Positions 1 through 44,847 of a stretch of 64,000 nucleotides of DNA are shown here, piece by piece. Source of the stretch: a virus (taxonomy: Duplodnaviria > Heunggongvirae > Uroviricota > Caudoviricetes). The position numbers were made by a program, and so were the translations under genes. Position 1 is the stretch's first letter; each line of letters begins with the position of its first letter. The notes beneath the pieces are model-generated. The model was given only the letters and a program-made list of their open reading frames with translations, was not told the origin of the DNA and searched no databases. Where the stretch lies: positions 1 through 64,000 of IMG/VR virus record IMGVR_UViG_3300012933_000388, one strand, 5' to 3'.

Positions 1-1
1 G

Positions 2-622
2 TGCCGTGGTAACTTCCCTTCATTGATTCCTAAGACTGATCAAGAGCGTGTGCAGAACTTGAAGAAGGAAATTGTATCAGCTCAGAATGATGTGTTCGAA
101 GTCACTGAAAAGATGGAAGGTTCTTCAATGACTGTCTACCAGATGGTCGTTGATGGTGAAATGACATTCGGTGTTTGCTCACGTAACATGGATCTGAAAG
201 AAACACAAGGTAATGCTTTCTGGGATACTGCTCGCAAAGATGACATCGAAGCTAAGATGAAAGCCGTCGATGAGTTCTGGTCATTCGCTATTCAAGGTGA
301 GTTGATTGGTCCTGGCGTTCAAGGTAACATCTATGGTTTGAAAGAACCAATGTTTGTTGTGTTCGATGTATATGACATTCAAGCGGGCGAATACATCCCA
401 CCAGATGCTCGACGTGAGTTGATTGATAATATGGGGTTGAACCATGTGCCAGTGTTGAACGAGCGTTACACTTTGACTCAAACTGTTGATGAGATCCTCG
501 CTTCTGCTGAGGGTCAATCGACCTTCGCTAAAGTGGAACGTGAAGGTATCGTGTTCAAACAAGCGATGGGCGGGTTCTCGTTCAAAGCGATTTCGAACAA
601 GTACCTCCTAGGTGAAAAGTAA
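2..622 (+). CDS. ATP-dependent RNA ligase (PF09414/DRB0094-like); 5' end outside window
   Basis: Frame is open to the window edge. Motif I lysine in EKMEGSS, GELIGPGVQGN, motif IV-like EGIVFK, and C-terminal FKAISNKYLL typical of this ligase family. Confidence 0.65.
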   Translation, partial: CRGNFPSLIPKTDQERVQNLKKEIVSAQNDVFEVTEKMEGSSMTVYQMVVDGEMTFGVCSRNMDLKETQGNAFWDTARKDDIEAKMKAVDEFWSFAIQGELIGPGVQGNIYGLKEPMFVVFDVYDIQAGEYIPPDARRELIDNMGLNHVPVLNERYTLTQTVDEILASAEGQSTFAKVEREGIVFKQAMGGFSFKAISNKYLLGEK

Positions 623-623
623 T

Positions 624-1013
624 ATGAATAGCCGAATAGAAGAACTGGCTAATGATTCGTTTGCATATGCGCAGACGCGTCATAGTCAGCATTCACCTGA
701 ACTAATTCGCACATTCACATCGAAGTTTGCTGAGCTTTTGATCCGCGACGTAATGGAAACACGGAACATGGGCGAGAGCGACCGCGAGCATCTTTGTTCG
801 TACTATGGTCTTGAGTATAAGCCAGTCATGATGAAGCATCCGGAGTATGGGGATCTATATCAGTTGGATGAATGGGACGAGGCAGTAAACGCTGGTTATT
901 TCAATTCAGATGATGGCTCAGGATATTGGGCAACGAAGACAGAATATGCATACGTCTCTTGCTGGGACGAATGCCCAGAATGGGCAACTCACATATTGTG
1001 GTTCAACAAGTAA
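624..1013 (+). CDS. hypothetical protein, FAELLxxEC paralog family member
   Basis: ATG 624 preceded by AGGTGAAAAG. RIEELA...TSKFAELLIRD motif is shared with other ORFs in the window. Confidence 0.6.
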   Translation: MNSRIEELANDSFAYAQTRHSQHSPELIRTFTSKFAELLIRDVMETRNMGESDREHLCSYYGLEYKPVMMKHPEYGDLYQLDEWDEAVNAGYFNSDDGSGYWATKTEYAYVSCWDECPEWATHILWFNK

Positions 1014-1030
1014 CTATTTTCTCCCCTTTT

Positions 1031-1058
1031 GCGCCCGCTTGTCGGGCGTTCTTTTTTT
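1031..1058 (+). terminator. rho-independent terminator
   Basis: GCCCG-cttgt-CGGGC hairpin followed by gttcttttttt. Confidence 0.6.
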
Positions 1059-1068
1059 GGTGTATAAT
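1039..1068 (+). promoter_or_regulatory. sigma70-type promoter, candidate leaderless (TATAAT-N6-ATG)
   Basis: TTGTCG-N18-TATAAT (1063-1068). The ATG of the Toprim gene starts 6 nt after the -10 and no SD is present. Confidence 0.45.
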
Positions 1069-1074
1069 ACTTGT

Positions 1075-1599
1075 ATGGAAACACTAGCACAACACATGAA
1101 GACACGTCACATGGACGTCAATCTCCACCACCCAGTATTGGATGAAGTGGAACGTGTTGCTACGTTCTATCTTTGGAACCTCAGTGGGCAGTTAGTTGGC
1201 TACCAACAATACAGGCCAGAAGGCGAGAAGAAGCCAAACAACAACCCACGAGAAGGTAAGTATTACACATACAGAAAGCAGCCTACGGTTGTTGTATGGG
1301 GTGTAGAATCGCTTCACCTTACACCGCATGTTGTATTCCTGACCGAGGGTGTGTTCGACGCTGCTAGGCTGACAGAACGTGGTGTTAGTGCACTTGCAAT
1401 CCTCAGTTGTAACACAGGCTGGGACTTACGCAACTGGTTAAGCATGCTCAATCGAAAGGTTGTTGCTGTTTGTGATGGCGATAAGGCAGGCGCGCAGCTT
1501 GCCAAGTTTGGTAATGTCAGTCTTTGTATGCTTGGGGGTAAAGACCTTGGAGATGCTGATGATGCGACTGTTGATATGCTAGTGAGGGAGTTTGTGTAA
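1075..1599 (+). CDS. Toprim domain protein (primase/topoisomerase-type fold)
   Basis: Conserved Glu in FLTEGVFDA and DxD in VCDGDKAG, then GGKDLGD. The longer ORF from 910 crosses the terminator, so ATG 1075 is preferred. Confidence 0.65.
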   Translation: METLAQHMKTRHMDVNLHHPVLDEVERVATFYLWNLSGQLVGYQQYRPEGEKKPNNNPREGKYYTYRKQPTVVVWGVESLHLTPHVVFLTEGVFDAARLTERGVSALAILSCNTGWDLRNWLSMLNRKVVAVCDGDKAGAQLAKFGNVSLCMLGGKDLGDADDATVDMLVREFV

Positions 1600-2210
1600 T
1601 GCCAGCCGTGCACCTATCAGGTCAACACAACGTAACATTCGTCCACATTCCTAAGTCTGCTGGTACTAGTGTAGGCAACTGGATAGTGGATCATGCTGAC
1701 GAGAGTGCTGTAATGTTGTGGTGGAATCATCCAACACTCGCTCAGATGAGACGTACTTGCAGTACCAACTTTTCAATTGCGGTGGTGAGGAATCCATGGG
1801 ACAGACTTGTTAGCATGTATCATTATGCTCAGTTTGGCACAAGTCCTCATCCAGCTATCGACTCTGATATGATTCACGAGATGTTTATCAGAGCAAACAA
1901 CTATAAGGTTTGGCCAACGTTCGATGAGTGGGTGTCCAACCTACCTTCATTCTACACTACACCAAACCAACAGGGCATGGATATGTCGCAGATGTATTGG
2001 ATTGGGGATGGAGTCGACTTGGTGATCAAGATGGAGACCATCGAACAGCAGTTTGAGGTGGTACAGGAAATGTTTAAGTGTGGTGATCCACTACCAAAGC
2101 AGAATACAACCAACCATGGTCATTATAGCAAATACTATGATGCTCGAACGAGAGATCTAGTTGCGAGATGGTTTAAGCGTGACATCGAAGCATGGCACTA
2201 TGAGTTTTAA
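1599..2210 (+). CDS. sulfotransferase family protein
   Basis: PAPS-binding 5'-PSB-like FVHIPKSAGTS and 3'-PB-like VRNPWDRLVSMY motifs. ATG overlaps the upstream stop. Confidence 0.65.
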   Translation: MPAVHLSGQHNVTFVHIPKSAGTSVGNWIVDHADESAVMLWWNHPTLAQMRRTCSTNFSIAVVRNPWDRLVSMYHYAQFGTSPHPAIDSDMIHEMFIRANNYKVWPTFDEWVSNLPSFYTTPNQQGMDMSQMYWIGDGVDLVIKMETIEQQFEVVQEMFKCGDPLPKQNTTNHGHYSKYYDARTRDLVARWFKRDIEAWHYEF

Positions 2211-2223
2211 TTAGGAGACAGAT

Positions 2224-2661
2224 ATGACAAGTATGATTTTAGTTCGTGGATTGCCAGGCTCTGGTAAGTCTACTGTTGCGAAGACTTTGATTGGTTTCTA
2301 CATGCACGTGGAAGCGGATATGTTCTGGATCAACGACTGTGGCGAATATGACTTCGATATCAAACGAATCGGAGAAGCACATTCGTGGTGTCAGAACCGA
2401 GTGTATGAGTTGATGGCTGCTGGGTTTAGTGTTGTTGTGTCTAATACATTCACAACATTGAAAGAGATGGCACCATACTTTGAAATGGCCCGCGACTTTG
2501 ATTGTGTTCCACAGATCATTGCCTGCCAAGGACAATATGGTAGCATCCATGGTGTGCCTGATGAGGCAATTACAAGAATGCGAGATCGATTTGTTTGGGA
2601 CGTGTCGCCATTGTATGATCTTGAATCAGCTTTTTGGCAAGATCGTACCTTGCAGCCTTAG
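2224..2661 (+). CDS. P-loop kinase (AAA_33 / polynucleotide-kinase-like)
   Basis: Walker A GLPGSGKST at the N-terminus, EAD Walker-B-like motif, size and layout of small nucleotide/polynucleotide kinases. RBS AGGAGA. Confidence 0.6.
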   Translation: MTSMILVRGLPGSGKSTVAKTLIGFYMHVEADMFWINDCGEYDFDIKRIGEAHSWCQNRVYELMAAGFSVVVSNTFTTLKEMAPYFEMARDFDCVPQIIACQGQYGSIHGVPDEAITRMRDRFVWDVSPLYDLESAFWQDRTLQP

Positions 2662-3277
2662 ACTTCGACCCGAGTACAACAATAATGTGCTCGGGAGTAG
2701 TCATAGCAACACACCAACCAGCTGCATTAGTGAACCCAGTCTTTGACACAGTAACATGGGTAAACTGAGTTAACAGATTATAGTTGGTATTTTGAAGGAG
2801 GGTTAGATGAGCCCTCTTTCCTTTTGGCATAACGGTTTGTACTGTAGGATGAGACGCAGCTCGTATCTCATCAAACTTCATCGCATATGCAATTAGCAGA
2901 GCAACATCCTCAGCAGTCGATATATTCATGCCGAGGCCAGATGGATCAATGAACCTAGTATTGGACATACCAAGCTGTCGAGCTCTAAAGTTCATAGCCT
3001 GGATGAATTTATCGCGACCATATGTTGCTGCGATCGCCTCAGCGGACTTATTATTGCTTTGCACTAGCATGGTGTCGATCAGGTAACGATCGTCGACTCC
3101 CAACTCCAAAGCAACAATTGCCGTCATCAGCTTAGTGATGCTAGCTAGTGGTCTTTGTTGGGATGAATCTTGTTCTACTACTACTTTGTTGTGTCGTATG
3201 TCATATACGAGAATCGATTCCTTGGCTTGCAAGGCTGTAGCGAAAAACAATGAGAAGATGATTAGAAGTCTTTTCAT
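2570..3277 (-). CDS. secreted D-alanyl-D-alanine carboxypeptidase/endopeptidase (peptidase S11, low-MW PBP)
   Basis: Signal peptide MKRLLIIFSLFFATALQA. SxxK (SITK), SxN (SNN) and KTG (SKTGFT) active-site triad. Confidence 0.8.
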   Translation of the reverse strand: MKRLLIIFSLFFATALQAKESILVYDIRHNKVVVEQDSSQQRPLASITKLMTAIVALELGVDDRYLIDTMLVQSNNKSAEAIAATYGRDKFIQAMNFRARQLGMSNTRFIDPSGLGMNISTAEDVALLIAYAMKFDEIRAASHPTVQTVMPKGKRAHLTLLQNTNYNLLTQFTHVTVSKTGFTNAAGWCVAMTTPEHIIVVLGSKSKAARYDLAKKLIQDHTMATRPKQIDLAFL

Positions 3278-3392
3278 AATTAGTGCCCCGTTTATGTCCT
3301 CCCACCTGGCGTAGTGGGATGTAGTAGGACGGGGCCACTCCTTTGTACACCTATCGTAAGTTTAACGGTCCTAAGGTAGGTGTGTTCTTTAG

Positions 3393-3755
3393 TTACCAGG
3401 CCTTGCAGGACCAGTAACGTGCTTTATCTTTTGGACCAGGGTTGTCACAATTGTGACGAGCTCTGAATGAAGAACGACGTGCAGGAATATTCTTCTTGAT
3501 CGTCATGTTCTTATCGCCGAAGTTTACTTTCTTAGCCTTGCCATCACCATCAGGATCGACGTAGACTTTAGACTTCTTAACATCGCCAGCCATTGGCTTG
3601 TTGAGAGGAACCTTCTTACCTTGGTAAGTCGCTTCATCGATTTCAGATTCTTCCTTAACGCAAGAATCTTCAGCGCATGGCTTTGTTCCAGCCTTACGCT
3701 TATACCCCTTCCAACAGGTACAATTCTCACTGATAAAGTATTTGAAAGACAACAT
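3393..3755 (-). CDS. conserved hypothetical Lys/Cys-rich protein
   Basis: RBS AAGGAA upstream of the ATG. C-terminal RRSSFRARHNCDNPGPKDKARYWSCKAW resembles a recurrent phage family I cannot name. Confidence 0.55.
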   Translation of the reverse strand: MLSFKYFISENCTCWKGYKRKAGTKPCAEDSCVKEESEIDEATYQGKKVPLNKPMAGDVKKSKVYVDPDGDGKAKKVNFGDKNMTIKKNIPARRSSFRARHNCDNPGPKDKARYWSCKAW

Positions 3756-3773
3756 CGATTATTCCTTTTTGAG

Positions 3774-3783
3774 TTTATTTATC
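3774..3783 (-). promoter_or_regulatory. T4-late-promoter-like motif GATAAATAAA
   Basis: Minus-strand GATAAATA lies 20 nt upstream of ATG 3755 with an intervening SD. Compare T4 late consensus TATAAATA. Confidence 0.3.
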
Positions 3784-3784
3784 G

Positions 3785-6700
3785 TCATGCGCCACGCAAC
3801 ATACAACCGTTGAACCAAGTAATAGCTGAGTTATTAACTGCCGTAACAGTTACGTTCCCGCCCGAACCTTGCTGAACGTATATTTCAAAGTAATCACCAG
3901 TGCCGTTTGCATACACCAATGAGCTTACTTGCATTGCCCAGAAGTTGGTAGCAATTTGCGCTCCTCTCTGGTTTATGCCACGCTTGTATTCTGTACCGTT
4001 TTTGTAAAGAATAATCATTATTTCGCCAGTGCCACTGGCACCATCTAGTCGAACTTCTGCATTCAATTGATAATAGCCTTCAACCGTAGGGGTGAATCTC
4101 GAGCTAGCGTAATTATTATTGGTGTCAAACTCTTCTACTTGAAATAGGACCTTGGTCTGAACATCAGTTGGAATTGTTTGGAGTGTGTTGTTTGCATATG
4201 CGGAGAATGCAGGACCATTGACTGCTTGCTTACCACCGACGGTGATCGGGCCTGGAACATTTAGCGCGCCCGTATCAGATAAAGAAAATATTGTTGCACT
4301 ATACGCACTGTTAATAATTTCTATTCCACCAACACTATTCAATCGGAACGATTTAGTGTTTGCGGTTGCACCAGCAGTTTTATTTGTGACCTTTAAGAAG
4401 TCAGCATACCCAGTACCGCCTTGCGTATTGGAAGCATTAACAATTAATGGATAACCGGTTGGAGTTGCACCAGCATATGTCAATGTTAAAGTATTGCTGT
4501 TGACGTTGACGGCAGAGATAGCACCGACGAAGCTAATGTTGTTTGAAGTGAGTGACGCAACACCATTAGCATATGCATACTGATTGGCAGCAATGCCGCT
4601 AAGGTATAGTGCGTTGTTAGCAGTGCCGGATATGTTGTCTGGTATCACGATCCCTGACACTTGCTCAACGTTAACAATAACTGCTGGTGTACCAGGTACT
4701 GTTGGTGTTGTACCGGCTGCATATGAAACCAATTTCACATGGCCGCCTTCGGATGAGTGCATCACCTGAACTCTATCACCAGCGTTGACAGTCACCATGA
4801 ACGGAGTAACAGCAATCAAGCTTCCAGGATCCTGACCAGTGTTCTTTCTATTGACTGAAAATCTACTATTAGTGTTTGTTTGATCGGTGCCGTTGATTCG
4901 AATCCACACATTGACGTCGTCGTCGGAATTACCATTATTTTCATACTGGTTGCTATATTCAATGTGGTATGTACCGCTATGTGCAAAGACTATATCGTTG
5001 TTGCTACCGACCGTTACGCCGTTTGTTCCATCATATGATGCAGTAATAGGAACGACGTATGCGTTGGTTGTATTAGATAACGCAACGTTAGCGCCGTTAT
5101 AGTAGAACGCCCCAAAGTATCCAGTAGTGAAGTTGTTAGATGTTCCGTTCTGGTTAATCCACTGGCTAAGCGCAGTGTTGTATGTCAACACTTGATTGTT
5201 CAACGGACCAGTAATAGTAACATCAGTCAGACTATCGATCGTAGTTGGAATCGTTGGCTTATTCTTAATGAAGTCAATCGCTAATGTATTCGATTGATTC
5301 CAATCAGTTTGAATCTGAGATGCAGTGGCATTAGTCCAATATACTCCTGTACCATTGGAGGCTAACACTTGGCCAGCAGATCCTTTAGCATTGTTTGCTG
5401 TAATCGATACAAGGGTTGCGTTGTTGGTATTAATGCCTGTTGAGTCGATAGTTGCTGTAGTGATTAGTGTATTGCTACCTACAGGCGTTGTTTGGAATGT
5501 TATCTTTGTGCCTGTATTGGCAGTATAGAAGTCTTCAGCAGCGTTCAAGTTGATACGAACAATACTACCTACGTACGTGTTGCTACCTGCCGCCCACCCT
5601 TGAGCTGTCAGACGCAACAAAGTATCGCCCGACAGCGTTGGTAGCGGTGAAGCTGCTGTTCCTCGAGCAGCCCTACCAGCAACAGATGCATATGCACCAG
5701 CACCATATGCATCAAAACCAATACGTGCTGGCTGCCCATCTTGCGCAACCGCTTGGATTAACGATCCAGAGAAGTTGCGAGGTTGAATGTCTCCTGTACT
5801 GGATCCGACTATTGTTAATGCCGCCTGTGATGTTAGTAGTGTTGCTGGAGTGTTGATAGTTACCAGACCCTCACGAGTTACACCGAATGTTTGGTTGCCA
5901 GTATCATAGCTGTTTACTACAATCGGGCGGTTGATGACAAGATTGCCAGTCCCTAATGTCGCTCCAATATAAAACGTTGCTTCTGTATTAGTTAACTGTA
6001 TGTAATTGTTTTGCAATAAAAAGTTACCAACACGAAGACCGCCATTAGATTGTTGTGTTGTATTTGCAATCGCAATATAGAATATACCATTAGCAAGTGT
6101 TAACTTTTGATCTGGAAACCCTGTCGTCTGATCTGCAAATGTAACAGAATTACCACCAACCCAAATGGACTCCCAGCGGTTGGTATTATTGCCGAGCGAG
6201 TATGTTAAGCTAGTATTCGGAATGATGGATGATGGAACGTGCAACCAGTCGACTGTTGTATTAGCGCTGATTACTTGATTACTAATTGTAATAGTTGTAC
6301 CGTCAATCTTTACACCACCCTTAGTGGTAGTAGAAGCAGTAGGGAGGACATAACCACCAGGGCCCCCGCCCGTTGGATCTTGTGCGGTCCACTTCTTGAT
6401 AGATTCATTATATGTAAGCACCTGGCCGTCTGTAGCACCAAGAACAGACGAACGAGCAACATCATCCAAGTCTCTTAACCATACTGCACCACCGCCTGGC
6501 CCGGTCATGGAAATCTTACCAACCCAACCTTCCAACAATTTCAACTTCTGTTGAATGTCCTTCAAGTCTCTACCAGTAACTTCTGGAGCAGGCTGGACGA
6601 ACATCGAAGGCGGTTGACCCTTCTTCTTAATTTTCTTAGCTGCCTCTTTGGCAAGTGATGGCTCTTCAATGGGCGCAAGGATCGCTTCCTCAATCACTTC

Positions 6701-7078
6701 TGGAATCTCAACAATACCTTCCAGGACATCCTCAACCTGTTGACCTTGGTCCGCATCCTCGGCGATAGTCACTTGTGGTTCGTCGGAAACTGCATTAGCC
6801 TTGATATCGTCAATCTTCGCGAGCACAGTCGCAAAACGATCTAACAGAGCCTGTTCTTCCGCGCTCTTTTGCTTTTCTTCAGCCATCAGCTTGCTAATCT
6901 GGCCAGAAAGGTCAGCGAACGTAGATTTGAAAACAGCCTTACGTTCTTCTTGTAAAGCAATCTGTTTCTTTTCTTTTTGTTCTTCAGCTATAATCTGGTC
7001 AAACACAGACTGTTCTGTCTCTACACCGAGACGTTCGTTCATTTTGACAATGAGGCGGAGTTCTTTTAGTTTATTCAT
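3785..7078 (-). CDS. long tail fibre protein
   Basis: 1097 aa. N-terminal coiled coil, Gly-rich hinge, STTTKGGVKIDG fibre repeat, long Asn/Thr/Gly-rich beta region, and two C1q/TNF-like jelly-roll-like segments at the C-terminus. Confidence 0.75.
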   Translation of the reverse strand: MNKLKELRLIVKMNERLGVETEQSVFDQIIAEEQKEKKQIALQEERKAVFKSTFADLSGQISKLMAEEKQKSAEEQALLDRFATVLAKIDDIKANAVSDEPQVTIAEDADQGQQVEDVLEGIVEIPEVIEEAILAPIEEPSLAKEAAKKIKKKGQPPSMFVQPAPEVTGRDLKDIQQKLKLLEGWVGKISMTGPGGGAVWLRDLDDVARSSVLGATDGQVLTYNESIKKWTAQDPTGGGPGGYVLPTASTTTKGGVKIDGTTITISNQVISANTTVDWLHVPSSIIPNTSLTYSLGNNTNRWESIWVGGNSVTFADQTTGFPDQKLTLANGIFYIAIANTTQQSNGGLRVGNFLLQNNYIQLTNTEATFYIGATLGTGNLVINRPIVVNSYDTGNQTFGVTREGLVTINTPATLLTSQAALTIVGSSTGDIQPRNFSGSLIQAVAQDGQPARIGFDAYGAGAYASVAGRAARGTAASPLPTLSGDTLLRLTAQGWAAGSNTYVGSIVRINLNAAEDFYTANTGTKITFQTTPVGSNTLITTATIDSTGINTNNATLVSITANNAKGSAGQVLASNGTGVYWTNATASQIQTDWNQSNTLAIDFIKNKPTIPTTIDSLTDVTITGPLNNQVLTYNTALSQWINQNGTSNNFTTGYFGAFYYNGANVALSNTTNAYVVPITASYDGTNGVTVGSNNDIVFAHSGTYHIEYSNQYENNGNSDDDVNVWIRINGTDQTNTNSRFSVNRKNTGQDPGSLIAVTPFMVTVNAGDRVQVMHSSEGGHVKLVSYAAGTTPTVPGTPAVIVNVEQVSGIVIPDNISGTANNALYLSGIAANQYAYANGVASLTSNNISFVGAISAVNVNSNTLTLTYAGATPTGYPLIVNASNTQGGTGYADFLKVTNKTAGATANTKSFRLNSVGGIEIINSAYSATIFSLSDTGALNVPGPITVGGKQAVNGPAFSAYANNTLQTIPTDVQTKVLFQVEEFDTNNNYASSRFTPTVEGYYQLNAEVRLDGASGTGEIMIILYKNGTEYKRGINQRGAQIATNFWAMQVSSLVYANGTGDYFEIYVQQGSGGNVTVTAVNNSAITWFNGCMLRGA

Positions 7079-7082
7079 GGAT

Positions 7083-7093
7083 AATATTTATCT
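7083..7093 (-). promoter_or_regulatory. late-promoter-like motif AGATAAATATT, N6 from ATG
   Basis: Minus-strand AGATAAATATT is identical to the motif at 51912-51922. GATAAATA ends 6 nt before the tail-fibre ATG and no SD is present. Confidence 0.35.
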
Positions 7094-7094
7094 G

Positions 7095-7123
7095 TTGCCA
7101 ATTCCGATTGGTCACTATACAAT
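7095..7123 (+). promoter_or_regulatory. sigma70-type promoter
   Basis: TTGCCA-N17-TACAAT, 30 nt upstream of ATG 7154 with AGAGG SD. Confidence 0.5.
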
Positions 7124-7153
7124 AGACGCCAACACACTTTCAAGAGGTATACA

Positions 7154-7519
7154 ATGTTTTTTGGTAAATCTGCACAATTGCAACACGCAGAGACGCGTAT
7201 TGATTACTTGTCAAAAACAATCGATGAGTTGAACGCTCAGATCAAACAGATGCGTGAAGATGCGGAGAAAGAAAAAGAATCCGATCTACAAACTTCCACA
7301 TTTGCGATCGACTTTAATATTATGCGTGCATTTGCAATTGAGCGTAATATACACAACGGCGTTGTTTGTACTATTGTTGGACACTTCATTTCGGAGCCAG
7401 TCGCATTTACCGATGGTAACGTTGCTGCTAAAGAAGTGACTCGTGAATGGTATATGTATTGCAGCCAAGAACAACACGAGAAGTTGGTTGCAGAATTTAA
7501 CGCATACAAAAAGAAATGA
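7154..7519 (+). CDS. hypothetical protein
   Basis: First plus-strand ORF after the divergent promoter. Coiled-coil-like N-terminus. Confidence 0.6.
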   Translation: MFFGKSAQLQHAETRIDYLSKTIDELNAQIKQMREDAEKEKESDLQTSTFAIDFNIMRAFAIERNIHNGVVCTIVGHFISEPVAFTDGNVAAKEVTREWYMYCSQEQHEKLVAEFNAYKKK

Positions 7520-7695
7520 TTGCTCGAGCATTACTGACCTTCTTGGTCTTATTTGCTGTCTTTTACTTTGGTATTAATGGTTGGCGCCACATGGCTGGCA
7601 AAGACCAATGGCAGTTGGTGAAATCCGTAACTTACAGTATAATCTGTTCAGTGCTTACAATTGTGGTGCTGACCTTCTTTGTAATTTTGTTCTAA
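7516..7695 (+). CDS. small membrane protein (59 aa, below ORF-track cutoff)
   Basis: ATGA overlap with the upstream stop. Two hydrophobic segments (LLTFLVLFAVFYFGI and IICSVLTIVVLTFFVILF). Confidence 0.45.
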   Translation: MIARALLTFLVLFAVFYFGINGWRHMAGKDQWQLVKSVTYSIICSVLTIVVLTFFVILF

Positions 7696-7703
7696 GGAAA
7701 AAT

Positions 7704-8495
7704 ATGAAACGCTTATTTGTAATGTTGATGGTAATTGGTGGCGCATTGCTCACTGGTTGTACCCGTATCGAGACTGGTACTGTTGGTTTGCGTGTCGATA
7801 TGTCACGACAGATCCAAGGTAATGAATTACAACCTGGTACATGGAACCAGACGTTGATCGGTAGTGTGCTTGAATTCCAAGTGCGATCGATTCCTACAGG
7901 TTGGGAAAACTTGACTCCACAAACCGCTGATAACTCTACACTGAAAGACTTTGACGTCAATATTGTGTATGAAGTTAATCCAGCATCTGTCTCTGAATTG
8001 TGGACTACACAATCACGAAGCTTCCACACATATGAGCATGGCGATTATATGCTGATGCGTAACTATATGTCTCAGGTATTGAGCTCTGCTGCAGCTAAAG
8101 CTGTTCGTAAGTACAAGGCATTGGAAGTTGCTGACAATCGTGAGAACATCGAAAAAGCAATCCACGACATCATGGTCAATATGTTGACTGAAGAAAAGCT
8201 CGAGAAAGCTCTTACTATTAGCCAGGTTCGTGTCACTAGTGCCACTCCTGCCGATGACATTGTAGCATCTGCTAACAACGCTGTCCGTGCTCAGAACGAT
8301 CTGAAGACCAAGCAAGTCGAAGTACAGATTGCTCAACAAGAAGCTATCCGTATCCAAACTTTGAACAGCAACTCACAAGCTATTCCATACATGAATGCAA
8401 TGGCTCAAATGGAAATTGCTAAAGCTATCCGTGAAGGTAAGGTCCACACAATTGTTGTACCTCTAGACTTCAAGGGTATTGTAAACGTCAAGTAA
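7704..8495 (+). CDS. SPFH/band-7 domain lipoprotein
   Basis: Lipobox MKRLFVMLMVIGGALLTGC. GTVGLRVD...PGTWNQ...TADNSTLKDFDVNIVYEV is the SPFH pattern. The ORF-track start 7581 was rejected because it overlaps the small ORF. Confidence 0.7.
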   Translation: MKRLFVMLMVIGGALLTGCTRIETGTVGLRVDMSRQIQGNELQPGTWNQTLIGSVLEFQVRSIPTGWENLTPQTADNSTLKDFDVNIVYEVNPASVSELWTTQSRSFHTYEHGDYMLMRNYMSQVLSSAAAKAVRKYKALEVADNRENIEKAIHDIMVNMLTEEKLEKALTISQVRVTSATPADDIVASANNAVRAQNDLKTKQVEVQIAQQEAIRIQTLNSNSQAIPYMNAMAQMEIAKAIREGKVHTIVVPLDFKGIVNVK

Positions 8496-42882: not shown

Positions 42883-43025
42883 TGAAAAGCATGAAGCAAG
42901 CAGCTAATTTTAAGATGCGTGGTAGAATTACCATGCGTTGCCATTGCCGCTGCTGCGAGGTTTTTAATCCGAAGTGGGCATATCGTATGAAAATGGCTGC
43001 CAAGGATATAAAAGAATTGTTGTAA
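42882..43025 (+). CDS. small basic Cys-rich protein (47 aa)
   Basis: TAATG junction. CHCRCC motif. Ends immediately before the tmRNA acceptor piece. Confidence 0.35.
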   Translation: MKSMKQAANFKMRGRITMRCHCRCCEVFNPKWAYRMKMAAKDIKELL

Positions 43026-43080
43026 TCCCTTCAAAGAGAAGGACTTCTGGACGCGGGTTCGACTCCCGCCATCTCCACCA
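43026..43080 (+). ncRNA. ssrA: tmRNA acceptor piece (3' half of a permuted ssrA gene); 5' boundary uncertain
   Basis: GCGGG-TTCGACT-CCCGC T-arm, 3' acceptor strand CATCTCC and encoded ACCA (43077-43080). Complementary to GGGGATG at 43219. Confidence 0.8.
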
Positions 43081-43218
43081 AAAGTAATCACCGAAGTGAC
43101 TAGGAATAAAAGCGGTCATCGAGTTAGGGCATCAGGTCAAGACTGTGTTAGTAGTGTGGACAGCCTCCCTAACCGACCACTAAGGCGAGTGGTTGAGAAT
43201 GCAACGATTACTTTTGAT
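43081..43218 (+). other. structured intervening segment of the permuted tmRNA precursor
   Basis: AAAGTAATC (43081-89) pairs with GATTACTTT (43206-14). Internal helices GTTAGGG/CCCTAAC and ACCACT/AGTGGT. Confidence 0.6.
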
Positions 43219-43455
43219 GGGGATGCCATGGTTTCGACAGGGGTAGATATTAGAGACGGCAACACGGTAGGCGATGACCGCAAATCAAGCAAATAAAAGT
43301 AACTGCAAACGAAAGCTCTTACGCATTGGCAGCCTAAACGCTGACTAGGGTTTCGGATGGTTTCCTCGTAACAGAATAACCATCCACTAATATATCAGAC
43401 ACGTTGCCCATTAGAGGCCCTGTATGGTCTAGCAGTACCATCAAAGAAACTGCTA
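43219..43455 (+). ncRNA. ssrA: tmRNA coding piece (5' half of the permuted ssrA gene); 3' boundary uncertain
   Basis: GGGGATGCCATGGTTTCGACAGGGG 5' end. Tag ORF GCAAACGAAAGCTCTTACGCATTGGCAGCCTAA (43305-43337, ANESSYALAA*). Helix 43355-62/43378-85 and H-type pseudoknot 43424-43455. Confidence 0.8.
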
Positions 43456-43755: not shown

Positions 43756-44328
43756 ATGCATTCAACAGCTGTAAACGCTGTCGATAAGACGGTGGTACAA
43801 CTTATCAGGGCCGTGTGCTTTGTTATTGGTGTAACTGTCGTTATATCTGCTTTAAGACTCGCTATTGACTATCGTACTGAAAATACAGTTGCGCCAGTAG
43901 TCAATACATCCGCAAGAGAAATCGAAACCCAGCTTACGTGCCTAGCACGGAACATTTACTGGGAAGCTGCATCCGAACCTTTTGAAGGCAAGGTCGCTGT
44001 AGCACAAGTCACAATGAACCGCATGAATAGCGGTAAGTTCCCAGACACAGTCTGTGGAGTTGTCCACCAGAAGACGACTGTGTATAATAAGATCGTCTGC
44101 CAATTCTCGTGGCTATGTGAAAATAACTATCGTACACGTCCCATACACCGTAAGATGTATGAGGAAAGTGAAGAAGTTGCTAAGATGGTGATGTTAGAGG
44201 GCTTCCGTTTGAAGACATTGAACGATGCTTTGTATTATCACGCTGATTATGTCAACCCACGATGGAAGTTAGACAAAGTTACGCAGATTGGTCGTCATAT
44301 TTTCTATAAGGAAAAGAGCAATGGATAA
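43756..44328 (+). CDS. SleB-type cell wall hydrolase (Hydrolase_2) endolysin with N-terminal membrane anchor
   Basis: TAGGAGG SD. N-terminal TM IRAVCFVIGVTVVISALRLAI. NIYWEAASEPFEGKVAVAQVTMNR...CGVVHQ...QFSW family pattern. Confidence 0.7.
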   Translation: MHSTAVNAVDKTVVQLIRAVCFVIGVTVVISALRLAIDYRTENTVAPVVNTSAREIETQLTCLARNIYWEAASEPFEGKVAVAQVTMNRMNSGKFPDTVCGVVHQKTTVYNKIVCQFSWLCENNYRTRPIHRKMYEESEEVAKMVMLEGFRLKTLNDALYYHADYVNPRWKLDKVTQIGRHIFYKEKSNG

Positions 44329-44608
44329 GTTGGAATCTATTAAAGAGTATCTCCGTCATATCTCGACGGAGACTATCGGATGGCTAGCTGTGATTATGAT
44401 TCACTGTAGTACGATTCCTCCTATCCTCGCTCTTCTGCTCGGCGTATCAGACCACCTACCTTCTATTGATGTGGTAGCGTTTATGTGGTTCGGTTTAATC
44501 TTGCTTTTCATCAAAGCTCTGATTACCAAAGATATGTTGAATGTTATTACTATTGGCGTGGGGTTCATCATCCAAGCCATGTTACTCGGATTATTGGTAT
44601 TCAAATAA
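44321..44608 (+). CDS. holin candidate (3 TM membrane protein)
   Basis: Overlaps the endolysin stop. Three hydrophobic helices. Position is the main argument. Confidence 0.5.
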   Translation: MDKLESIKEYLRHISTETIGWLAVIMIHCSTIPPILALLLGVSDHLPSIDVVAFMWFGLILLFIKALITKDMLNVITIGVGFIIQAMLLGLLVFK

Positions 44609-44847
44609 TGGAAGAACAAATCAATCAACTCATTAACGTCCAGGACTTCTTATTAAAGATCGAATCGATCTCACGCGAGAAGCGTTTAGACGCTATGGAC
44701 GCAGTACTGTGGTATTGTGCCAACTCAGGCCTCGAAATTGAGACCGCTGCTGAGCTTATTCGTAAGAATGCAAAGATGAAAGCTCGCATCAAAAACGATG
44801 CAGAGAACAATGGATATTTTCCTAAGACCGCAAAGCTACCAATTTAA
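44608..44847 (+). CDS. gp33: late transcription coactivator (T4 gp33-like)
   Basis: TAATG junction. LDAMDAVLWYCANSGLEIETAAELIRKNAKMKARIKNDAE parallels the T4 gp33 core (MSYLEATTAFLEENSIPETQFAKFI...). Confidence 0.5.
   Translation: MEEQINQLINVQDFLLKIESISREKRLDAMDAVLWYCANSGLEIETAAELIRKNAKMKARIKNDAENNGYFPKTAKLPI

Follow-up and report, generated by a model that had tools for sequence, protein, structure and literature searches.

A predicted Sec-exported PBP7-type DD-peptidase without a conserved beta-hairpin in large T4-like freshwater phages

Profile matches, catalytic motifs, the modelled fold and the N-terminal sequence indicate that a 235-residue protein encoded on the minus strand of the 64,000-nucleotide stretch of viral DNA analysed here (the window) is a serine DD-peptidase of the PBP7/PbpG type (MEROPS S11) that consists of a single domain and is exported through the Sec pathway. 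Its gene is a long-time resident of a lineage of large T4-like freshwater phages. Moreover, judging from alignments and structural models, the clade to which it belongs has lost a beta-hairpin by deletion and is, as a result, a non-canonical member of the S11 family.

To our knowledge, few phage proteins enter the periplasm unaided ahead of lysis, and the examples known from work on T4 govern lysis timing and superinfection. A phage-made penicillin-binding protein (PBP) would be a different kind of tool, namely direct enzymatic editing of the cross-links of the host wall during infection.

Family, fold and export signal of the phage protein

The gene and the sequence elements on which its assignment depends are the following.

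2570..3277, minus strand: PBP-type peptidase gene, 235 aa, ATG start, PBP7/PbpG-type Peptidase_S11
3224..3277, minus strand: signal peptide, residues 1-18 (MKRLLIIFSLFFATALQA), predicted cleavage before KES
3131..3142, minus strand: SxxK motif, S46-I-T-K49, in register with SITK of 6azi and 6muq
3086..3100, minus strand: short linker, approximately residues 60-64 (GVDDR), in place of a 21-residue beta-hairpin (clade-specific gap columns)
3050..3058, minus strand: SxN motif, S74-N-N76, in register with SEN of 6azi and 6muq
2735..2743, minus strand: KTG motif, K179-T-G181, in register with KTG of 6azi and 6muq

The reading frame stands as an earlier note on this DNA had described it, and its product belongs to the Pfam family PF00768, Peptidase_S11 (E=4.7e-30, 105.2 bits against a cut-off of 27.6), with a further match to phrog_5304. 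The SITK, SNN and KTG triad recognized in that note is upheld by its register with the two solved structures; the SxxK motif supplies the catalytic serine and the general-base lysine. In an alignment of 120 sequences, S46, K49, S74, N76, K179, T180 and G181 are invariant, which disposes of the possibility, raised at the time, that the active-site residues would prove not to be conserved on alignment. The middle residue of SxN is N in all 12 clade members as opposed to D in 94% of the other homologues.

The closest PDB relatives by sequence are the PBP7-type endopeptidases 6azi and 6muq (E=1e-26), and the same two are the best fold matches in Foldseek (6azi, E=5.6e-18, TM 0.76) for an AF2 model of the 235-residue protein (pLDDT 91) that adopts a penicillin-binding/beta-lactamase-like alpha-beta fold. 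Foldseek yielded 415 matches at E<=0.001, and the 50 listed are S11-type DD-peptidases or PBPs with the exception of one designed hydrolase; the solved fold with the lowest rmsd among the matches is that of the K15 DD-transpeptidase (2.2-2.4 A, TM 0.77-0.78). Among the NCBIfam models, PRK11669 (PbpG) scores highest, and its 112.5 bits, which fall short of the equivalog cut-off of 294 bits, nevertheless make it the best family by about 70 bits, the DacA, DacC and DacD models reaching approximately 40 bits. The phage protein also contains the 'NTN' motif of 6azi and 6muq and consists of a single domain without domain II or a membrane anchor, the model of its 235 residues ending in helix 207-221 and a disordered tail. 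By these comparisons, the PbpG/PBP7 DD-endopeptidases are closer to the phage PBP than the PBP5-type carboxypeptidases. Thus, of the 'carboxy/endopeptidase' activity proposed earlier, the endopeptidase half is probably the better guess, given the PRK11669 score, the 'NTN' motif and the single domain, and the carboxypeptidase half, with its low Dac scores, is the less likely one.

The earlier note missed the 21-residue deletion. In the alignment, a segment with the consensus LTRSIKLSNRVGSSLPRGQYT in all other homologues is gone from 12 of the 12 clade members, and the corresponding hairpin is also present in every solved relative matched. The missing segment sits between the SxxK helix and SxN; in the model of a loop-containing homologue (P0018) it comprises a strand (66-68), a loop and a second strand (81-83), and helix 45-58 of the modelled window protein runs directly into helix 64-72. 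The spacing between the SxxK and SxN serines is 28 residues, as against 57 in E. coli PBP7, and is shorter than in any family member compared. The phage PBP does without the S11 feature of an SxxK-to-SxN hairpin that contacts SxN. The deleted hairpin includes the counterpart of the 74-90 loop of PBP5, which modulates SxN and the deletion of which is reported to abolish the carboxypeptidase activity of PBP5 (PMC9320039); hence, hydrolytic turnover may be impaired in the phage enzyme. The hairpin-less variant is a natural experiment on the role of the SxN-adjacent segment in low-molecular-weight PBPs, and its small size, 217 residues in the mature form, recommends it as a minimal scaffold for structural studies.

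With respect to export, the N-terminus, MKRLLIIFSLFFATALQA followed by KES, has two positive charges, a 13-residue uncharged core, A at position -1 and no lipobox. Such Sec-type features recur in 14 of the 14 N-termini tabulated (11 from the clade and 3 from loop-containing relatives), the sequence itself diverging, and they support the cleavable signal peptide predicted earlier. The mature solved proteins align from residue 18 on, and the AF2 model has an N-terminal helix at low pLDDT. The infected cell, presumably that of a Gram-negative host, would synthesise the pre-protein and translocate it into the periplasm, with cleavage before KES.

The gene is under strong purifying selection, with diversities of 0.184, 0.102 and 0.459 at the successive codon positions of the mature region (8 loci). 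Its GC content (0.45) equals that of its flanks, and thus there is no sign of recent capture by horizontal transfer.

The overlap with the convergent kinase gene

The 3' end of the PBP gene is shared with a gene on the opposite strand.

2224..2661, plus strand: P-loop kinase-like gene, 145 aa, AAA_33; core to residue ~131 (nt 2616), tail 132-145 (nt 2617-2658)
2570..2661, both strands: convergent PBP/kinase overlap of 92 nt, from the ORF coordinates
2615..2659, minus strand: last PBP helix, residues 207-221, high pLDDT, antisense to the kinase tail
2573..2614, minus strand: PBP C-terminal tail, residues 222-235, disordered, antisense to the kinase core

The kinase-like protein matches Pfam AAA_33 (47.7 bits) and the polynucleotide kinase families phrog_2071 and phrog_505. 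The ORF coordinates confirm the 92-nt overlap described earlier, along with the gene that enters into it, and the accompanying suspicion that one of the two C-termini had been mis-called does not survive comparison with relatives. The distance from the PBP ATG to the kinase ATG is exactly 1054 nt in eight of eight independent assemblies, in which the overlaps span 83-95 nt, both ORFs are open, both stop codons recur and no indels are present at 69-96% protein identity. Furthermore, another subclade (L001, L003) has a different partner, an Rnl1-type RNA ligase gene, with which the overlap is 56 nt. Overlaps of 92 nt between convergent genes are uncommon, and the disordered PBP tail without detectable constraint could likewise be taken to mean that the overlap is an artefact (a frameshift, an assembly error or a mis-called stop) or that the PBP gene is a piece of host DNA, either in decay or present as a contaminant. 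This reading, however, is already contradicted by the constant spacing with both frames open, by the overlap with another partner, by the purifying selection on the PBP and by the preserved synteny with phage genes, and we consider it exceedingly improbable. The overlap is genuine, and neither C-terminus is mis-called.

Nor does the conserved region end before position 2661, which according to the earlier note would have made the overlap trivial: the conserved helix 207-221, in which K207 and R210 are near-invariant or invariant, lies inside it. The two conserved cores meet at approximately nt 2615. From there, the PBP continues for 14 disordered residues until its frame, antisense to the kinase core, meets a first stop, and the 14-residue tail of the kinase is encoded antisense to the last PBP helix. 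Under the kinase tail, the third-position diversity of the PBP gene is halved (from 0.459 to 0.217, p=0.008; 8 loci), and under the PBP tail that of the kinase gene is unchanged (0.321 vs 0.366, Fisher p=1; 8 loci). The kinase tail is thus constrained and functional, and no constraint is detectable on the PBP tail, which by prediction is disordered (pLDDT below 50 for residues 225-235); the sequence of this tail differs in the clade with the RNA ligase partner. Most kinase homologues stop near residue 131. The kinase of L001 was considered as an ortholog for judging the kinase tail and rejected, being a different AAA_33 protein. The locus is a clean, small example of convergent genes with abutting cores and mutually antisense tails, only one of which is selected.

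Phage context, upstream genes and the RNA element

The genes upstream of the PBP gene and those of the lysis region are listed below.

3285..3383, minus strand: two-hairpin RNA element (hairpin 1, 3347-3383; AAGGAG, 3338-3343; hairpin 2, 3285-3335)
3393..3755, minus strand: 120-aa gene, phrog_7595, co-oriented upstream, the RNA element usually following it
3785..7078, minus strand: fibre-like gene, 1097 aa, co-oriented upstream, N-terminus conserved and C-terminus variable
43756-44328: SleB/Hydrolase_2 endolysin with an N-terminal TM segment
44288-44608: 3-TM ORF adjoining the endolysin gene

The window encodes a gp32 SSB, a gp33-like coactivator, a gp5-like hub and baseplate wedge proteins, a complement that identifies it as part of a T4-like phage, and syntenic relatives are found on contigs of 196, 223 and 235 kb. 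Given the separate SleB-type enzyme, the adjoining 3-TM ORF and the Sec signal of its own that the PBP is predicted to carry, the PBP is not the endolysin. The earlier claim of a PBP-type DD-peptidase that is phage-encoded and distinct from the endolysin accordingly agrees with the S11 match, the T4-like genes and the presence of the SleB-type gene. The phage also encodes a beta-type permuted tmRNA, which suggests that its host belongs to the Betaproteobacteria. The best cellular homologues of the PBP come from Gamma- and Betaproteobacteria and, together with the tmRNA type, point to a Gram-negative host. Megablast of positions 1-8000 of the window against GenBank phages gave no match, and tblastn of the PBP against the same phages gave only matches of at most 38% identity (no more than 30% where most of its length aligned), largely to unannotated gut contigs or doubtful records; a scan of JGI metagenomes added two further close relatives only.

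Any 5' leader of the PBP gene would have to be formed by the RNA element. This element is near-identical in 13 distinct loci, with covarying base pairs and no conservation of a reading frame, and an Rfam scan of the leader region returned no credible family. A repeated cassette of the PeSL type was ruled out as its identity because the element is single-copy in the window. The idea of a PBP-specific leader or split Shine-Dalgarno device was rejected in its PBP-specific part, as the same element precedes unrelated genes (L095, L096); in two other loci (L004, L005) it stands apart from the PBP gene. The 1097-aa fibre-like protein has no PHROG or Pfam match. The best sigma-70-like match (10/12) is located at 7143-7114, just upstream of the fibre-like gene; the scan for sigma-70 promoters and terminators found nothing in the 115-nt spacer before the PBP gene and no overall enrichment, and an exact search for the T4 late-promoter motif TATAAATA gave 0 matches in the 64 kb.

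Proposed function and comparison with known systems

We propose, with a confidence that only slightly exceeds an even chance, that the PBP acts in the periplasm as an exported DD-endopeptidase and thereby loosens the sacculus of the host while infection proceeds. In the periplasm, such an enzyme would cut the D-Ala-mDAP cross-links of the sacculus, and we infer that the loosened wall could allow enlargement of the cell during infection or help the SAR-type SleB endolysin at lysis. T4 secretes periplasmic proteins such as Spackle and, by analogy, a phage-made and presumably periplasmic protein in a T4-like genome might function in superinfection exclusion or in defence-related remodelling of the wall against later phages. 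We regard this as quite improbable: cutting of cross-links should ease rather than hinder penetration of the wall, no resemblance in sequence to known exclusion proteins emerged, and the gene is located downstream of the fibre-like gene, not amid obviously early genes.

Both activities occur within the S11 family, and the weaker matches to DacA, DacC and DacD are significant, so that the protein might instead be mainly a DD-carboxypeptidase like PBP5/6, which would trim the terminal D-Ala of pentapeptides and leave fewer donors for cross-linking. This alternative seems unlikely in view of the lead of the PbpG model over any Dac model, the best-matching structures being endopeptidases that share the 'NTN' motif, the lack of both the membrane anchor and the C-terminal domain II that characterize PBP5/6, and the absence of the loop reported to be needed for PBP5 carboxypeptidase activity (PMC9320039). 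The same absence, shared by the entire clade, bears on a further possibility, that loss of the hairpin created a slow-deacylating or non-hydrolytic PBP that is acylated by D-Ala-D-Ala stems or beta-lactams and turns over poorly. It could then serve to trap or cap stem peptides, as a strict transpeptidase in the manner of Streptomyces K15, or as a peptidoglycan-binding regulator of another enzyme. The effect of the loop deletion on PBP5 (PMC9320039), the low rmsd to the K15 enzyme and the strict retention of the residues needed for acylation would fit such a protein. However, SxN and KTG, two motifs with a part in deacylation, are retained as well, and a stoichiometric trap would require very high expression; furthermore, PBP7-type enzymes already have a loop much shorter than that of PBP5 and are active endopeptidases (PMC11586513), so that the PBP5 result may not transfer, and we give this possibility little credence.

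Homologues of 40-45% identity also occur on phage-like contigs, which suggests that the phenomenon is broader than the hairpin-less clade. A far-reaching generalization, which we advance as a speculation with a small chance of being correct, is that secreted PBP7-like enzymes are widespread, undescribed periplasmic effectors of large environmental phages, and that the present clade is a naturally minimised PBP with altered chemistry. If so, hairpin loss could have produced a slow-deacylating enzyme that covalently caps or traps stem peptides or, alternatively, an opened cleft could permit much more aggressive cutting of cross-links in intact sacculi by a Sec-delivered partner of the SAR endolysin.

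The nearest relatives outside the clade are metagenomic PBP7-like proteins of other large phage-like contigs (40-45% identity), among them P0042, P0064 and P0116, each of about 250-275 aa; P0042 and P0064 have signal-peptide-like N-termini. The contigs of these three appear phage-like, with many small unannotated ORFs and genes for DNA ligase, HNH/NUMOD3, phage lysozyme, SleB-type hydrolase and NAD synthase; the surroundings of a further homologue from the sample (P0090) are ambiguous. In contrast to the clade, these proteins keep the beta-hairpin, and the fibre, 120-aa and kinase neighbourhood is missing. Full-text searches found no paper that describes these homologues.

With PBP7/PbpG of the E. 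coli type (6azi, Enterobacter cloacae; 6muq, Yersinia enterocolitica), the phage PBP shares the single-domain periplasmic S11 fold, the signal peptide, the SxxK, SxN, KTG and 'NTN' motifs, and approximately 30% identity over the whole mature domain. In E. coli PBP7, S67, S124 and K231 are essential, and a C-terminal alpha-helix directs midcell localisation (PMC11586513). The phage protein differs in being phage-encoded, in lacking the 21-residue hairpin, a 'PG' dipeptide and four residues after the KTG strand, in scoring far below the equivalog cut-off, and in continuing past the last helix as a disordered run-on. E. coli PBP5 and PBP6 (DacA/DacC) belong to the same family, have the same catalytic motifs and are alignable from residue 65 to 218, whereas the phage PBP has neither domain II nor the amphipathic membrane anchor (235 aa as against 363-403) and no counterpart of PBP5 residues ~59-100, including the 74-90 loop.

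Searches of the literature for S11, PBP7 or DD-endopeptidase genes in phages found nothing relevant, and the single phage 'DD-carboxypeptidase' that they retrieved was set aside as an unrelated VanY endolysin (PMC5219037). The VanY or Peptidase_M15-type endolysins of phages such as KP27 and T5 are likewise phage-encoded peptidoglycan peptidases, often under the same annotation label, but they are unrelated zinc metallopeptidases, unlike the serine PBP with its own predicted Sec signal; the VanY-type 'D-Ala-D-Ala carboxypeptidases' are holin-dependent and are actually L-Ala-D-Glu endopeptidases (PMC5219037). Such VanY-type enzymes are the lysis enzyme itself, whereas the phage PBP coexists with a separate endolysin.

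Catalytic core, export signal and missing hairpin

The minus-strand ORF lies at exactly the coordinates that the earlier note had assigned to it, and its 235-aa product (PBP) matches both Pfam Peptidase_S11 (105.2 bits, E=4.7e-30; gathering score 27.6) and PHROG 5304 'peptidase'.

Features at the peptidase locus
2570..3277, minus strand: PBP gene, ATG start, 235 codons
PBP residues 1-18 (MKRLLIIFSLFFATALQA), minus strand: predicted signal peptide, from tabulated classical features
2224..2661, plus strand: convergent kinase gene, AAA_33 P-loop protein (47.7 bits), PHROG 'ATPase' / 'polynucleotide kinase'
3285-3383, minus strand: structured RNA element of ~100 nt, comprising hairpin 1, an AAGGAG motif and the 51-nt hairpin 2

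Among solved structures, the top sequence matches are 6azi (E=9.6e-27) and 6muq (E=3.4e-24), both PBP7/PbpG-type DD-endopeptidases, and the same two entries head a Foldseek search with the single-domain AlphaFold model of PBP (mean pLDDT 91, pTM 0.85). The SxxK/SxN/KTG triad previously read from the ORF is borne out by printed sequence alignments, in which SITK pairs with SITK, SNN with SEN and KTGFTNAAG with KTGFTNAAG of these enzymes; S46, K49, S74, N76, K179, T180 and G181 are invariant across 120 aligned sequences, as is T164 of the 'NTN' motif that PBP shares with 6azi and 6muq. The original family assignment was correct and can be refined: the NCBIfam PbpG endopeptidase model PRK11669 ranks top at 112 bits, against ~40 bits for the DacA/DacC/DacD carboxypeptidase models, with PBP under the equivalog cut-off of every one of these models. 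PBP is a PBP7-like but non-canonical member of the family.

The cleavable signal peptide proposed earlier is likewise predicted here. Residues 1-18 contain two N-terminal positive charges, a core of 13 uncharged residues (maximum 9-residue Kyte-Doolittle mean 3.1), A at -1 and L at -3, and no lipobox cysteine. The same architecture precedes a conserved K/R-E-S mature end in all eleven relatives of the clade (the 12 close hairpin-less sequences that include PBP), among them three whose database gene calls start too late, even though the signal sequences themselves have diverged (MRWVVFVVWMLCSITTFA|KES and MKKLLLTLLLLAAPAFA|KES, for instance). Given this conservation, together with the alignment of solved mature enzymes from residue 18 onwards and the modelling of residues 2-12 as an isolated low-confidence helix, export via the Sec pathway is well supported as a prediction.

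The principal structural peculiarity lies between SxxK and SxN, where a 21-residue segment (consensus LTRSIKLSNRVGSSLPRGQYT) is absent from 12/12 clade sequences, which are 65-96% identical to each other, and kept in the other 108 homologues. Absent from the clade too are a 'PG' dipeptide and four residues downstream of the KTG strand. In the loop-containing homologue P0018, the segment is modelled as a beta-hairpin (strand 66-68, 12-residue loop, strand 81-83; AlphaFold, pLDDT 90), whereas in the PBP model five residues with pLDDT above 95 link helix 45-58 to helix 64-72. The catalytic serine and the SxN serine are accordingly 28 residues apart in PBP, compared with 57 in E. coli PBP7 (S67 and S124; PMC11586513).

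Selection, distribution and phage context

Codon-position diversity of the PBP mature region across eight independent loci (0.184 / 0.102 / 0.459) demonstrates clear purifying selection, and the GC content of the gene (0.45) is that of its surroundings. Close relatives occur on contigs of up to 196, 223 and 235 kb (ENA, Logan, IMG/VR), at least one of them labelled freshwater metagenome, usually in the order fibre-like gene, 120-aa gene, PBP and convergent gene. The top matches in bacterial genomes (one per species), from Gamma- and Betaproteobacteria, are only 30-38% identical to PBP, whereas metagenomic proteins come nearer, at 40-45%. We inspected the genomic context of four of the latter: three (P0064, P0042 and P0116) lie among dense, small, unannotated ORFs of phage-like character, with genes for DNA ligase, HNH/NUMOD3, phage lysozyme, SleB-type hydrolase, NAD synthase, SOD and Fe-S assembly around them, and the context of P0090 is ambiguous. 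The N-termini of P0042 and P0064 resemble signal peptides.

PBP7-like genes, 40-45% identical, with the hairpin kept, on large phage-like contigs
L090, 8001-8828
L091, 8001-8741
the contig encoding P0116

With metagenomic proteins closer than bacterial ones and three of the four inspected in a phage-like context, PBP is apparently part of a larger PBP7-like branch carried mainly by phages, with the hairpin subsequently lost in the clade; these comparisons suggest a broad phage-borne family.

A gp32-type SSB, a gp33-type late coactivator, a gp5-type hub and baseplate wedge proteins identify the window, by gene content, as that of a T4-like phage. By its gp6-like wedge protein, the nearest cultured relatives are Caulobacter phage Cr30 (40%) and the Sinorhizobium phiM12 group (37%); no DNA-level match to the window was found among GenBank phages. 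The window also encodes a permuted, Betaproteobacteria-type tmRNA at 42974-43397 (plus strand; Rfam beta_tmRNA 140 bits, E=9e-43; tmRNA_permuted 147.5 bits) with the ARAGORN-predicted tag peptide VTANESSYALAA, which points to a betaproteobacterial host.

Features of the lysis region
43756-44328, plus strand: SleB/Hydrolase_2 endolysin with an N-terminal hydrophobic segment (SAR-like)
44288-44608, plus strand: holin candidate ORF with three TM-like stretches, next after the SleB enzyme
44485-44847, plus strand: gp33-type late-transcription coactivator (PF16805), from domain match, not a lysis gene

The presence of this separate SleB/Hydrolase_2 enzyme, followed by the three-TM ORF, upholds the view that PBP is not the endolysin. 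Among auxiliary genes, an unusual one at 1599-2210 (plus strand) encodes a sulfotransferase (Pfam Sulfotransfer_2, E=1e-11; PHROG 3347 'galactose-3-O-sulfotransferase'), which also adjoins the kinase in the related locus L129.

The convergent overlap and the upstream RNA element

The PBP and kinase genes overlap by 92 nt, which had raised the suspicion that one C-terminus was mis-called. This suspicion was wrong: the two ATGs are exactly 1054 nt apart, with zero indels, in 8/8 assemblies (the window, L004, L005, L006, L125, L127, L128 and L129), in all of which both frames are open and overlap by 83-95 nt. The PBP gene of another subclade has a different convergent partner, encoding an Rnl1-type RNA ligase, and overlaps it by 56 nt. 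The overlap cannot stem from sequencing or calling errors. Neither is the overlap trivial in the sense that PBP conservation ends before 2661, since homologue alignment shows conservation continuing inside it as far as helix 207-221 (K207 near-invariant, R210 invariant or near-invariant), which ends at nt 2615. Beyond the clade, kinase homologues mostly stop at the equivalent of residue ~131, so that the conserved kinase core, with M119, R122, F123 and L130 invariant, ends at nt ~2616. The two cores abut, and each 14-residue tail is antisense to the core of the other protein.

Third positions of PBP lie opposite second positions of the kinase, and the reverse holds as well, which permits a test of the tails for constraint. 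Beneath the kinase tail, PBP third-position diversity falls to 0.217 from 0.459 elsewhere (variable positions 9/16 vs 159/186; Fisher p=0.008), implying selection on this tail (DLESAFWQ...). Beneath the PBP tail, the third positions of the kinase show no such fall in diversity (0.321 vs 0.366 elsewhere; 10/14 vs 84/114 variable, p=1). With 16 and 14 sites, the asymmetry is indicative, not proven, of a kinase tail under selection and a PBP tail free of detectable constraint. In the model, the PBP tail follows helix 207-221, the last helix, as an unstructured stretch predicted to be disordered (pLDDT below 50), and its sequence differs in the ligase-partner clade; it is best read as a run-on to the first stop in the antisense frame. 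The C-terminal tail of the kinase homologue P0123 (163 aa) is tandemly duplicated (RFEYDVSDLYNTESDYWKEAARFKYDVSELHDTQSDYWKEGF), which fits a functional module. The neighbourhood is RNA-repair-like, with an RNA ligase (PF09414) at 23-622 (plus strand) besides the kinase at 2224-2661 (plus strand); in relatives it is enlarged by genes for an Rnl1-type ligase, a metallophosphatase and another RNA ligase (L001 6590-10747; L005 6695-7702).

A spacer of 115 nt precedes the PBP ATG and contains no sigma-70-like site. Across the whole 64-kb window, 0 copies of the T4 late-promoter motif TATAAATA were found against 2.8 expected; since a gp33-like coactivator and late genes of T4 type are nevertheless present, this lineage must rely on another late-promoter consensus. 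The two-hairpin RNA element almost fills the spacer, and the PBP transcript must therefore begin upstream of or within it. The nearest same-strand promoter-like match (7143-7114) precedes the fibre-like gene, making co-transcription with that gene possible. The fibre-like proteins themselves (window 3785-7078, minus strand; L095 1492-4236; L096 9499-11172), for which no PHROG or Pfam match was found, combine a conserved ~200-residue N-terminus with unrelated C-terminal parts and differ greatly in total length (557-1440 aa), as would be expected of a swappable receptor-binding protein.

Copies of the RNA element in related loci
L001, 5827-5942
L004, 696-811
L005, 4327-4442
L008, 3840-3955
L095, 2104-2219, minus strand
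L096, 11541-11656
others

The non-coding element, single-copy in the window, is nearly identical in 13 distinct loci in which flanking proteins are only ~65-80% identical, and it contains no conserved reading frame and has no Rfam match. The basal stem of hairpin 2 covaries (G-C to A-U in five sequences, C-G to U-A in one), hairpin 1 exists in several mutually compensated versions, and the internal loops are completely conserved. Most copies lie after the 120-aa gene and most, though not all, before PBP; some precede unrelated genes. The element may act as a 3'-end structure, as a small RNA or, for PBP, as a split Shine-Dalgarno device.

Probable function and relation to known enzymes

The evidence shows or strongly supports a phage-encoded, selected PBP7-type serine peptidase with a complete catalytic set, an export signal and a missing hairpin. 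On balance, we lean towards a DD-endopeptidase that is active in the periplasm and has the host wall as its target. The protein would be exported to the periplasm of a Gram-negative host, which the beta-type tmRNA and the proteobacterial affinities of the family fit, and would loosen the sacculus by hydrolysing 4-3 cross-links. The two most plausible uses are to let the infected cell enlarge or keep building its wall, endopeptidases including PBP7 being known to promote peptidoglycan synthesis (PMC11586513), or to weaken the wall in advance of attack by the SAR-type SleB endolysin.

A carboxypeptidase is an unlikely alternative given the low Dac scores. It is similarly doubtful that hairpin loss has turned the enzyme into a slow-deacylating trap or a transpeptidase. 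Residues 65-218 of PBP align to PBP5 101-256 and S46 corresponds to PBP5 S44, so that PBP5 residues ~59-100, including the 74-90 loop, have no counterpart in PBP; in PBP5 the loop touches the SxN motif, and carboxypeptidase activity of that enzyme is reported to be 'completely abolished' when the loop is deleted (PMC9320039). However, the loop of PBP7-type enzymes is already much shorter than that of PBP5, and this result may not carry over to them. Superinfection exclusion, to which we give a small chance, is a biological purpose and hence overlaps with the biochemical options. That the overlap or the gene is an artefact is extremely improbable in view of the constant spacing of the two genes.

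We found no literature on phage S11 or PBP7-like genes, and the published phage 'DD-carboxypeptidases' are VanY metallopeptidase endolysins unrelated to PBP. The function in a phage is thus undescribed so far and the hairpin deletion is structurally notable, but the DD-endopeptidase reading that we favour involves no new mechanism: PBP is a known kind of enzyme in an unusual carrier.
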